The notes under the pieces are model-generated. The model ran no database searches. It was not told the origin of the DNA and saw nothing but the letters and a program-made list of their open reading frames with translations. The translations under genes and the position numbers were made by a program. Shown here piece after piece: positions 7,605 through 17,018 of a stretch of DNA of 64,000 bases (its first letter is position 1; each line of letters begins with the position of its first letter). This DNA is from an uncultured Chloroflexia bacterium. GTDB lineage: Bacteria; Chloroflexota; Limnocylindria; Limnocylindrales; CSP1-4. The DNA is taken from assembly GCA_963819655.1 (NCBI GenBank), contig CAWFXA010000002.1, positions 1,600,001-1,664,000 on the forward strand. The letters run 5' to 3'.

Positions 7605-7696
7605 GGAGAGGTCGCATAGAGGCCTAGTGCAGCGGTTTGCTAAACCGCCATGTGGGGTAACCTGCATCGAGGGTTCGAATCCCTCCCTCTCCGCCA
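7605..7696 (+). tRNA. tRNA-Ser(GCT)
   Basis: GGAGAGG/CCTCTCC acceptor stem, anticodon arm gcggt-tt GCT aa-accgc, long variable arm, GGTTCGAATCC, CCA end. Confidence 0.96.
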
Positions 7697-8776: not shown

Positions 8777-8852
8777 GCGCCCGTAGCTCAGTGGATAGAG
8801 CGTTAGGTTGCGGACCTAAAGGTCGTGAGTTCGAGTCTCGCCGGGCGCGCCA
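8777..8852 (+). tRNA. tRNA-Arg(GCG)
   Basis: GCGCCCG/CGGGCGC acceptor stem, TAGCTCAGTGGATAGAGC D-arm, ttagg-tt GCG ga-cctaa anticodon arm (8810-8812), GTTCGAGT, CCA end. Confidence 0.94.
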
Positions 8853-14751: not shown

Positions 14752-14845
14752 GCCGTGGGGAATCCTAGCGTCTTGGTCTCGACGAGGCTGTTGCGGTTCG
14801 GTTGCGGGGGGTTGGGCGCAAACGGGCGTCTGCTAGCATCGCCAC

Positions 14846-15286
14846 ATGAACTACGAGCTGTTCATGGGCGAGGCGCTCGCGGAGGCACAGCTCGCTGTCG
14901 GGCGTGGTGAGCGGCCGATCGCGGCCGTCGCCGTCGTGGACGAGGCGATGGTCGCGCGCGCCCATGACCGAGTCGAGCAGGCCGACGACCCGACCGCTCA
15001 CGCCGTGGTCGTCGCGCTCCGTGATGCCGCGCGTCGGCTCGGTCGGGGACGGCTCGCTGACGCCACGATCTTCACCACCGAGGAGCCGTGCGCGATGTGT
15101 GTCGGCGCGCTCCTGGAGAGCGATGTCGAAGCGCTCGTGTACGCGGTCCCGAACACCCGGGACGGGGCTGCCGGGACCGTCGTCCAGCTCGCCCAGCATG
15201 CTTCGTTGCCGCGCCGGATCAAGGTCGTGAGCGGCATCCGTCGCGACGAGGTCGAGGCGCTCTTCGCCGCCAGTCCGACCGTCTAG
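14846..15286 (+). CDS. tadA: TadA (tRNA adenosine deaminase) homolog lacking the catalytic Glu
   Basis: DPTAHAV (normally DPTAHAE), EPCAMC and GAAG motifs; lies upstream of SRP RNA-dnaX-ybaB-recR as in the Bacillus tadA locus. Confidence 0.85.
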   Translation: MNYELFMGEALAEAQLAVGRGERPIAAVAVVDEAMVARAHDRVEQADDPTAHAVVVALRDAARRLGRGRLADATIFTTEEPCAMCVGALLESDVEALVYAVPNTRDGAAGTVVQLAQHASLPRRIKVVSGIRRDEVEALFAASPTV

Positions 15287-15359
15287 CGGGTCGCCGATAC
15301 GCCCGCCCAAGGGATGCCGGCGAGCGGCTGTCCAAGGCTCGTTTGGTATCCTCTCCCGC

Positions 15360-15445
<86 letters not shown>

Positions 15446-15554
15446 CCACACCCGATCACACGGACCGGTCGAAACCTCGGGCCGATGGCGTCGCGGGGAT
15501 CCGCCGCGGGACTCGGTGCGACTGCGGGAGCACCCCGTTACCCTGTCGACTCGG

Positions 15555-15642
15555 GGAGAGGTCGCCTAGTGGACTATGGCGCCGCACTGGAAATGCGGTT
15601 CGGGGCAACCCGTCGCGGGTTCGAATCCCGCCCTCTCCGCCA
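15555..15642 (+). tRNA. tRNA-Ser(GGA)
   Basis: GGAGAGG acceptor, ccgca-ct GGA aa-tgcgg, variable arm, GGTTCGAATCC, CCA end. Confidence 0.95.
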
Positions 15643-16038: not shown

Positions 16039-16761
16039 ATGCCTGATATCGAGATCCTGCCGCTCGCGCTGTCCGAGTTCCAGTTCACCGATCCGGCACT
16101 GGCCGACCGGCGTGGTGTCGTCATGGGATACGTCGTCCGGCATCCCGATGGGGTGCTCATGTTCGATACCGGGTTCGGCTTCGGCAACGCCGAGCTCGAC
16201 GAGATGTACGCCCCGGTCGGCCGACCGATCCTCGAGATCCTGAGCGAGGCGGGCGTCGAAAAGGACGAGATCACGGAAGTCGTGAACTGCCACCTCCACG
16301 CGGACCACGCCGGTCAGAACGGAGCGTTTTCGGGCGTGCGCATCCACGTCCAATCGGCCGAATGGGAGGTTGCTCACACGACCGACCACACGGTCCTGGA
16401 GTGGATCGAGGCGCCCGGAGCGACGTACCTCCTCATCGACGGCGACCACGAGATCACGCCCGCGATCCGGGTGATCGCGACCCCCGGCCACACGCCGGGG
16501 CACCAGTCGCTCGCCATCGACACCGATGCCGGCACGGTCGTCCTCGCCGGGCAGGCCTGTTACACGGTCGGGGAATGGGTCGGCGATCCCGACGCCATGG
16601 AGGGCCGGAGCGTCGCGCCGGACCAGTCCGCATACGACCGGTCCATCGAGCGCCTGCGCGAGCTCGACCCCATTCGCGTTCACTTCGGTCACGACCGGGC
16701 GGTCTGGACGGCCGACCCCGCCCGTCCGTCGACCCCTGCTATCCTTCCCGGGCCGTGCTAG
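16039..16761 (+). CDS. Metallo-beta-lactamase-fold hydrolase (N-acyl homoserine lactonase-like)
   Basis: FDTG, HLHADH, TPGHTPGH, AGQA and GHD motifs; the stop codon lies within the 5' end of the SRP RNA. Confidence 0.85.
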   Translation: MPDIEILPLALSEFQFTDPALADRRGVVMGYVVRHPDGVLMFDTGFGFGNAELDEMYAPVGRPILEILSEAGVEKDEITEVVNCHLHADHAGQNGAFSGVRIHVQSAEWEVAHTTDHTVLEWIEAPGATYLLIDGDHEITPAIRVIATPGHTPGHQSLAIDTDAGTVVLAGQACYTVGEWVGDPDAMEGRSVAPDQSAYDRSIERLRELDPIRVHFGHDRAVWTADPARPSTPAILPGPC

Positions 16762-17018
16762 GCGGGGAACTAGCGGTGCCCTGTAGCCTGCAATCCGCTC
16801 CAGCAGGGCCGAATCCCCTCTCGAGGTCTCCGTTCTCGGTCGCCGCCCGTCGGTGCGACGTTGAGGATCGGGTCCCGCGCAGCGGCGAACCGCGAACCGT
16901 GTCAGGTCCGGAAGGAAGCAGCACTAAGCGACCATCGTCGGGTGCCGCGGAACGGCCTGATCCGAGCCGCCCGACGTGGTGGGCCCGGGCGACGGATGAT
17001 CGACGGAGGGTGCACGGC
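16752..17018 (+). ncRNA. ffs: Signal recognition particle RNA, large bacterial type with Alu domain
   Basis: GCCGTGC...GCACGGC terminal pairing, GGGGAAC-AGCGGTGCCCTGT Alu segment, conserved TCAGGTCCGGAAGGAAGCAGC helix 8; directly upstream of dnaX. Confidence 0.92.

Follow-up and report, generated by a model that had tools for sequence, protein, structure and literature searches.

The window analysed here, a stretch of 64,000 nucleotides from an uncultured Chloroflexia bacterium of the class Limnocylindria (contig CAWFXA010000002.1, positions 1,600,001 to 1,664,000), carries an orthologue of tadA in which valine takes the place of the catalytic glutamate, so that the HAE motif of the deaminase reads HAV. 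The fold and the zinc ligands are retained, the genome is devoid of any tRNA with adenine at position 34 (A34), the state of the enzyme and the anticodon of tRNA-Arg co-vary across Limnocylindria, and the gene is subject to purifying selection. It is probable that the gene now encodes a pseudo-enzyme that selection has retained – most likely a zinc-bound dimer without catalytic activity that acts by binding a ligand. Bacterial TadA is generally regarded as almost universal and in most cases essential, and members of the HAV cluster are annotated as active: IMG names those of the P0005 cluster 'tRNA(adenine34) deaminase'.

Results

Valine replaces the catalytic glutamate in an intact tadA

The coding sequence (14846-15286, stop codon included, + strand) is present in the list of open reading frames (ORFs) and specifies a protein of 146 amino acids, characterized by Pfam and NCBIfam matches, an AlphaFold2 model and a Foldseek comparison. 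Residues were equated with those of E. coli TadA by means of phmmer, which aligned the protein without gaps to chains derived from that enzyme, residue n of the query being E. coli residue n+5 (codon n starts at 14846+3(n-1)). His52 (14999-15001), the zinc ligand of the H-A-x motif, aligns with H57, and the zinc-binding cysteines of the PCxxC motif (Cys82-Ala-Met-Cys85, 15089-15100; Cys82 at 15089-15091, Cys85 at 15098-15100) align with C87 and C90; all three ligands are invariant in 28 of 28 orthologues. Residue 54, equivalent to the catalytic E59, is encoded by GTG (15005-15007) and is thus valine. Three further positions differ from the E. coli enzyme (D41 for N46, P122 for N127 and R123 for H128), and the C-terminal FFxxRR helix is absent, the protein ending at about E. 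coli residue 151, some 15 residues short of the end of that helix. N46, N127, H128 and the aromatic and basic C-terminal helix are what we take to be RNA contacts of TadA. On all these points – the intact frame with its zinc histidine and PCxxC, the GTG codon in place of the catalytic glutamate, the three substitutions and the missing helix – the alignment agrees with a preliminary description of the locus made from the sequence alone. Given the established role of the glutamate in the cytidine-deaminase fold, the HAV protein would be expected to be catalytically inactive.

Two Pfam families match the protein, MafB19-deam at 84.9 bits and dCMP_cyt_deam_1 at 73.6 bits. Among NCBIfam models the TadA equivalog NF008113 scores best, with 107.9 bits, which is under the curated cut-off of 150 bits; that cut-off is reached by none of the 81 genomes of the order. 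The AlphaFold2 model (predicted local distance difference test, pLDDT, 91.3; predicted template modelling score, pTM, 0.89) is a single domain, for which Foldseek gives a template modelling (TM) score of 0.92 with B. subtilis TadA (7cph). Against solved TadA structures (7cph, 1z3a and 2b3j) the TM scores are 0.90-0.92 at identities of 33-38%, and ADAT2 and ADAT3 rank lower.

When two copies of the protein were modelled the homodimer score was 0.82, compared to 0.08 for the best of three controls; of 30 proteins solved as one-chain pairs 20 reach that mark, as against 1 among 23 single-chain structures. Runs agreed in at least 96% of contacts, with a partner pLDDT of at least 91, and many invariant residues lie in the modelled interface, including 47-50, 52, 59, 82-84 and 86-88. 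This pass may simply reflect likeness to solved TadA dimers. The model contains no metal; zinc is presumably still bound, and the homodimer is probably kept.

Two other accounts of this stretch were rejected. An antisense ORF (14765-15451) was dismissed as a gene, long spurious ORFs being common at such GC content, and the idea that the ORF is kept merely as regulatory DNA for the downstream tRNA-Ser genes was set aside on the grounds that such a role would not constrain amino-acid changes.

The substrate and a second TadA are missing from the genome

The sole known bacterial tRNA substrate of TadA is described as tRNA-Arg(ACG) (PMC3711424). The source genome (3.49 Mb in 3 contigs, 69% GC, 91% complete) was searched in its entirety with ARAGORN: none of its 50 tRNAs has A34, and no tRNA-Arg(ACG) is found in this 91%-complete assembly. 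The arginine tRNAs carry the anticodons GCG, UCG, CCG, UCU and CCU. The usual substrate is replaced by tRNA-Arg(GCG) with the loop TTGCGGA, which lies in the window at 8777-8852 (+ strand; ARAGORN, with an Rfam tRNA match). That tRNA-Arg(ACG) and all A34 tRNAs are gone explains why catalysis by TadA could be lost. An attempt to compare arginine codon usage in long stop-to-stop ORFs was discarded because many such ORFs are spurious at 69% GC.

The preliminary description proposed searching the genome for a second, HAE-type TadA. The search with NF008113 detected none in the source genome: the remaining two matches are HGE-type proteins, which from their translations look to us like a yeast-type cytosine deaminase and a guanine-deaminase-like fusion.

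Both HGE genes have features of their own. The first (G000:C2:1232368-1232679, - strand; loci L002/L028) seems to be frameshifted near the C-terminus, the last ~50 residues being in another frame, which may reflect an indel introduced by the assembly or a genuine pseudogene; the cytosine-deaminase-like gene is intact in the genus relative G021 (L025). In the second (G000:C3:964259-964582, - strand; L003) the HGE domain, with CHPCPMC, runs on in frame into an additional domain, which from its translation looks like one of glyoxalase/VOC type; this two-domain arrangement recurs in the relatives G021 and G024.

The HAV type is fixed in two families

The families of Limnocylindria compared here are labelled f1 (that of the source genome) to f5; f2 belongs to the same order as f1, and f4 to another order of the class. 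Within the genus, the orthologue is present in 20 of 24 other genomes and every copy is HAV. The copies in three of these genomes (G007, L024/L027; G015, L022; G022, L023/L031) are split over two frames in assemblies of 8-20 contigs, and assemblies with few contigs tend to carry indel errors. A match at E≤1e-10 was obtained in 47 of the 52 other f1 genomes. The 49 loci read from this family comprise 45 orthologues from 16 genera (44 HAV and one HAI), three HAE paralogues of other types and one truncated locus. In f4, 19 loci were read, 17 of them HAV and two HAL. Among 33 sampled orthologues the glutamate position is held by V in 31, I in one and L in one. Whether HAV is fixed in related Chloroflexota, a question raised by the preliminary description, can thus be answered for f1 and f4: all orthologues have V, I or L.

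Other families differ. Family f2 (genomes of about 1.1 Mb, within 1.0-1.4 Mb) gave no NF008113 match at E≤1e-10 in any of 28 genomes; at L135, the sole f2 locus with ORFs listed, the place of the gene upstream of tRNA-Ser(CGA) is taken by a PNPOx-family ORF. In f3 and f5 every one of the 30 loci is HAE and has the C-terminal FF motif (28 of 28 when the unpublished genomes G160 and G182 are left out). The HAV trait is therefore not class-wide: f3 and f5 keep the canonical enzyme, f3 also keeps the canonical tRNA, and f2 is without the gene.

One f4 genome shows an additional copy: L240 (G149:C60, a 3.4-kb contig region) encodes a canonical HAE TadA (184.5 bits) besides the HAV copy. It groups in the tree with other Chloroflexota and not with f3, and probably reflects bin contamination or transfer.

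Enzyme and tRNA-Arg anticodon co-vary

The tRNA-Arg(GCG) gene, usually beside tRNA-Ser(GCT), was found in 33 of 41 genus genomes, in 17 of 21 f2 genomes and in 29 of 31 f4 genomes (27 of 29 once the unpublished genomes G188 and G194 are set aside), and none of the genus, f2 or f4 tRNA-Arg loci read contains an ACG gene. For f3, BLAST of the tRNA-Arg gene was too strict (4 of 31 genomes at 1e-12; 8 of 41 at 1e-14), and genes were instead typed by IUPAC patterns for the D-arm and anticodon loop in 41 genomes, combined with TadA searches. An ACG-type gene is present in 30 of the 41, and TadA in 29 of those 30, the exception being G136 (89% complete). Three genomes (G118, G150 and G185) have the GCG type only, and TadA was found in none of the three, the weak matches there being RibD. 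The remaining eight genomes match neither tRNA pattern; TadA is present in four of them and not in the other four. Enzyme state and tRNA-Arg anticodon therefore co-vary across Limnocylindria.

The structure of the f3 genes bears on how often the anticodon has changed. The f3 GCG genes have an f3-type acceptor stem and, like the f3 ACG genes, adjoin tRNA-Arg(UCG); the UCG and ACG genes are no more than 1.5 kb apart in five of the eight f3 genomes read. The loop TTGCGGA (U32, G37) is common to the f3 GCG genes and those of f1, f2 and f4, while ACG genes have CTACGAA. Given their acceptor stem and their UCG neighbour, the f3 cases appear to have arisen by separate remoulding of the anticodon arm, each time linked with loss of the active TadA. 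One f3 genome, G130, holds both an ACG-type and a GCG-type gene (the pair at G130:C21:239814-239835 and G130:C30:84329-84350) together with an HAE TadA.

Purifying selection on the HAV protein

If the gene were decaying neutrally, amino-acid changes would be expected to accumulate freely, and the ratio of non-synonymous to synonymous change (dN/dS) was proposed in the preliminary description as a check. Pairwise dN/dS was calculated by the Nei-Gojobori method and is given as medians. For full-length genes of the genus (276 pairs) the median is 0.151 (range 0.03-0.41). In the core region the values are 0.132, 0.103 and 0.168 for three f1 genera and 0.176 for f4, compared to 0.156, 0.163 and 0.251 for the active HAE TadA of three f3 genera. 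The HAV protein is thus as constrained as the active enzyme (0.10-0.18 vs. 0.16-0.25); neutral decay is not borne out, and values as low as those of active TadA argue for a retained pseudo-enzyme, not a decaying gene.

The alignment of 28 orthologues has 33 invariant columns, among them D48-P-T-A-H52-A53 and E80-P-C82-x-M-C85, and a variable C-terminal tail. Comparison of 33 HAV with 33 HAE sequences identified two positions conserved in both sets but different between them, E54V and A86V. Constraint is relaxed in HAV proteins at thirteen positions that are conserved (at least 85% identical) among the HAE proteins: V23, G26, G33, E44, W68, A92, R93, S111, N122, H123, L140, F143 and F144. The two phenylalanines are 97% (F143) and 100% (F144) conserved in the 33 HAE relatives, and are not conserved in the HAV proteins. 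Conserved in the HAV proteins only are E4, L5, E13, A29, A34, L97, G110 and S129; the acidic members of this set, E4 and E13, both lie in the modelled N-terminal helix (H3-19).

Single origin within Chloroflexota TadA

A maximum-likelihood tree was built from 56 rows (21 of 45 f1, 12 of 19 f4, 12 of 29 f3 and 1 f5 loci, 9 of 20 other Chloroflexota fetched, and the extra HAE copy of G149), with midpoint rooting only. The 33 HAV rows all fall in a single clade (support 100/100). The branches flanking the HAV/HAE split measure 0.64 and 0.59 changes per site, compared to a median terminal branch of 0.25. The topology thus points to one origin of the HAV clade, with a long stem branch leading to it.

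A profile of the HAV proteins was compared with 301 sampled Chloroflexota genomes. It scores 215-260 bits in f1 (16 of 16) and 190-211 bits in f4 (15 of 15), and at best 152 bits elsewhere. Matches were obtained in 42 remaining Chloroflexota genomes, of which 20 were fetched; all 20 are HAE with the FF motif. By this measure the HAV type appears confined to f1 and f4 among sampled Chloroflexota. In a representative library of 1.84 billion proteins, the best 150 of 18,739 matches include 42 HAV and 99 HAE proteins, one each of HGE, HAF, HAP, HPI and HAR, and four fragments lacking the motif; several of the odd-motif proteins in these best 150 are fragments or frameshift products. A collection of species-representative genomes contains at least 557 stretches that encode relatives (any tblastn match, E≤1e-3).

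Two metagenome singletons from the library search stand apart. P0048 is HAV and keeps the canonical EVPVGAV and a C-terminal FLAARR; nothing closer to it than 50% identity was found among 401 genomes of the class, its cluster being a singleton on a 6-kb metagenome contig. P0054, from a short contig, has the motif HPI. Both may represent further inactive TadA lineages.

The locus corresponds to the tadA position of other bacteria

The gene order in B. subtilis is given as yaaJ (tadA)-scr-dnaX-yaaK-recR (PMC10454642). In the window (all features on the + strand) the HAV gene is followed by tRNA-Ser(CGA) directly downstream (15360-15445), tRNA-Ser(GGA) (15555-15642), the large bacterial signal recognition particle (SRP) RNA (16753-17017; Rfam RF01854, 172.8 bits), dnaX (17054-18844; Pfam DNA_pol3_delta2, DNAX_ATPase_lid and DnaX_C), ybaB/ebfC (18918-19220, start approximate; Pfam YbaB_DNA_bd, 119.7 bits) and recR (19228-19845; Pfam RecR_HhH, RecR_ZnF, Toprim_4 and RecR_C). 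The HAV gene thus holds the tadA position, the downstream order matching scr-dnaX-yaaK-recR of B. subtilis. The tRNA-Ser(CGA) neighbour is conserved in f1 and f4, and the HAE tadA genes of f5 genome G124 (likewise followed by tRNA-Ser(CGA)) and f3 genome G120 lie upstream of the same tRNA-Ser genes. The HAV gene is therefore the positional orthologue of tadA and not a paralogue, as the preliminary description had judged probable from the Bacillus locus, and the sister family f5 and one f3 genome now point the same way. Its placing of the gene upstream of SRP RNA-dnaX-ybaB-recR also holds, with the qualification that the two tRNA-Ser genes and an ORF of the metallo-beta-lactamase fold intervene between the gene and the SRP RNA. 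About 6 kb upstream of the HAV gene is tRNA-Arg(GCG), adjoining tRNA-Ser(GCT) (7605-7696; ARAGORN), a neighbour conserved in f1, f2 and f4.

Discussion

A probable path from an anticodon switch to a retained pseudo-enzyme

The observations are best accommodated in the following scenario. In the starting state tRNA-Arg(UCG) would already have been present alongside ACG, as it still is in f3. The sole A34 tRNA, tRNA-Arg(ACG), would then have been remoulded to tRNA-Arg(GCG) in the ancestor of f1, f2 and f4, a change that would also have put U in place of C at position 32 of the loop and G in place of A at position 37. With CGA and CGG covered by tRNA-Arg(UCG) and tRNA-Arg(CCG), inosine would no longer have been needed. 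TadA would then have lost its proton-shuttle glutamate (now valine), the C-terminal FFxxRR helix and the constraint at about a dozen positions, while keeping its fold with the zinc ligands, and probably the homodimeric state, and gaining a few conserved residues of its own. In f1 and f4 the protein would now bind a ligand, for which RNA, protein and small molecules are candidates; the streamlined f2 and the GCG-only f3 lineages would have dropped the gene outright. That the protein has a new function, and that this function is one of binding, is suggested by the constraint on its sequence.

Several points weigh against this reading. The order of the glutamate loss and the anticodon change could be either. 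The gene is dispensable in some backgrounds, being absent from the f2 genomes searched and from three GCG-only f3 genomes; deletion by f2 indicates that whatever role it has is dispensable in streamlined genomes. Within the genus, too, the orthologue was not found in 4 of 24 genomes (59-91% complete), and the frameshifts in G007, G015 and G022 may be real decay in those lineages. The pair of tRNA genes in G130 suggests that the switch may have passed through a redundant stage and not have been a change in place. Independent switches of the anticodon are few (one for f1, f2 and f4 together and one to three in f3), and related genomes are non-independent samples. Finally, a role in RNA binding is not well supported, positions of RNA contact being relaxed, and much of the conservation may reflect just the fold and the dimer interface.

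Alternative explanations

One alternative, which we regard as unlikely, is that the HAV protein is an ADAT3-like non-catalytic subunit, paired with a catalytic partner (another protein of the deaminase fold) to which it would offer substrates. The resemblance is considerable: as described for ADAT3 (PMC8216470), glutamate is changed to valine, the zinc triad is kept, the C-terminal helix is shortened and residues for tRNA recognition are lost, and ADAT3 chains match the protein by sequence (E = 1e-11) and by fold. A partner is what this explanation lacks. The genome offers no HAE TadA-like protein, just the two HGE proteins of other deaminase types, and among f1 genomes extra HAE paralogues are sporadic (3 of the 49 loci read); there is also no ADAT3-like N-terminal domain, and the homodimer model passes. 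The preliminary description had proposed RNA binding, scaffolding or heterodimer formation with another deaminase as roles of a TadA kept as a non-catalytic protein. Retention as such is consistent with the lost glutamate, the V, I or L fixed in two families, purifying selection and the want of a second copy; of the roles, heterodimer partner is the least supported, no catalytic TadA-like partner being at hand, and RNA binding is weakened by the 13 relaxed positions.

A second alternative, quite unlikely in our estimation, supposes that the protein is still an active deaminase acting on a different substrate (a nucleoside or free base, or some other RNA or DNA site), with the zinc-bound water activated by a route other than the HAE glutamate. 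We know of no active member of the cytidine-deaminase fold without this glutamate. The glutamate position is always hydrophobic (V 31, I 1 and L 1 of 33), as is the second diagnostic change, A86V, and the only acidic residues peculiar to HAV proteins, E4 and E13, are both in the N-terminal helix. ADAT3 with the same change of glutamate to valine is described as inactive (PMC8216470). Such an enzyme would account for the invariance of the zinc ligands and of D48-P-T-A-H-A and E80-P-C-x-M-C in all 28 orthologues, and for purifying selection as strong as on the active enzyme.

The third alternative, that the gene has been in slow decay as a neutral relic ever since the loss of its substrate, is very improbable. 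Loss of the gene in f2 and in the GCG-only f3 lineages, three genus copies that look frameshifted and 13 relaxed positions are what decay would produce. Against this, ORFs are intact across two families, dN/dS (0.10-0.18) is equal to or below that of active TadA, 33 columns of the 28-sequence alignment are invariant, and residues conserved in this clade only have appeared.

That the valine codon is a sequencing or assembly error in the source genome – an assembly of just 3 contigs in which one other deaminase gene looks frameshifted – is already refuted, by V, I or L at this position in every orthologue read from ~80 other genomes and by contigs from three public runs that agree at 15005-15007. 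Read support for the GTG, which the preliminary description had wanted confirmed in raw data, rests on these contigs: those of two independent DNA metagenome runs (X1, 519 nt; X3, 523 nt) span the codon with no difference, as does a contig of 359 nt from an RNA-library run (X15). A further contig of the gene, 207 nt long, comes from an RNA library (X16), and carry-over of DNA is possible for both RNA-library contigs.

Comparison with known systems

The pseudo-enzyme proposed here resembles bacterial TadA in its fold, its zinc ligands, its place upstream of SRP RNA-dnaX-ybaB-recR and its modelled homodimer. It differs in having valine for the glutamate, in the missing FFxxRR helix, in the replacement of N46, N127 and H128, in its score (107.9 vs. 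150 bits) and in a host without tRNA-Arg(ACG). With ADAT3/Tad3 it shares the four features already listed from PMC8216470. However, ADAT3 has an extra N-terminal domain that binds tRNA and works only together with catalytic ADAT2, whereas the HAV protein is a single domain of 146 amino acids whose host genome has neither a catalytic partner nor an A34 tRNA. In subunits of the ADAT3 type a carboxylate at the C-terminus caps the zinc as its fourth ligand; the C-terminal tail of the HAV orthologues is variable. Since the HAV clade arises within Chloroflexota TadA, its likeness to ADAT3 appears to be convergent. A V225E mutant of ADAT3 is reported to regain no activity (PMC8216470).

A related change of decoding is described in Mollicutes, where tadA was lost and tRNA-Arg(ACG) was replaced by GCG and UCG (Yokobori et al. 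2013, PMC3711424). In both groups decoding relies on tRNA-Arg(GCG) and tRNA-Arg(UCG) with no inosine, and in Limnocylindria, as in the model given for Mollicutes (PMC3711424), relatives still using ACG already possess tRNA-Arg(UCG). The settings are different: Mollicutes have reduced, AT-rich genomes of parasites and have lost the gene, whereas these Limnocylindria have genomes of 2-4 Mb and 69% GC from soil and sediment metagenomes, keep tRNA-Arg(CCG), and in f1 and f4 retain the gene as what appears to be a conserved dead protein. Deletion of yaaJ (tadA) in B. subtilis is viable (Soma et al. 2023, PMC10454642), which indicates that a bacterium whose tadA locus is similar can live without editing of A34. 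That case, however, is a laboratory deletion with reported costs in growth and frameshifting (PMC10454642), whereas in Limnocylindria the anticodon change would have removed the need.

A literature search covering main texts found no paper on a bacterial TadA with valine at the catalytic position (the supplements of Yokobori 2013 and of Diwan & Agashe 2018 might list tadA-negative taxa) and, supplementary tables being outside its scope, none on tRNA-Arg(GCG) in Chloroflexota or Limnocylindria. The class offers a natural case, in non-reduced bacteria, in which an enzyme has changed in concert with its only tRNA substrate and the anticodon has switched repeatedly. A bacterial pseudo-deaminase would allow the retained function to be studied without the complication of a catalytic partner, and bears on the origin of inactive subunits of the ADAT3 type and on the rewiring of wobble decoding in genomes of high GC content, as well as on how tadA is annotated across hundreds of genomes of Chloroflexota.

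A second wobble modification

The tRNA set of the source genome also includes tRNA-Ile(TAT), together with just two tRNA(CAT) genes. Lysidine synthetase TilS (TIGR02432) was not found in the source genome or in the f1 genomes G024 and G068; the f2 genome G025 gave a match of 21 bits only, whereas f4 genome G117 and f3 genome G122 scored 166 and 163 bits. The order to which f1 and f2 belong may thus read AUA with a UAU anticodon, having dropped a second near-universal wobble modification. We lean towards a broader interpretation in which the f1 and f4 protein is a stand-alone bacterial counterpart of ADAT3, freed by the anticodon change and given a new non-catalytic job across two orders – such as binding an RNA or protein partner by way of the zinc pocket and the dimer surface – with TilS also dropped in the order of f1 and f2. 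Were this so, the lineage would have dispensed with two wobble modifications usually seen as near-universal in bacteria. The ARAGORN output for the source genome further contains a tRNA-SeC(TCA), as well as a tRNA that is not assigned to any type and whose anticodon is given as two letters ('ct').

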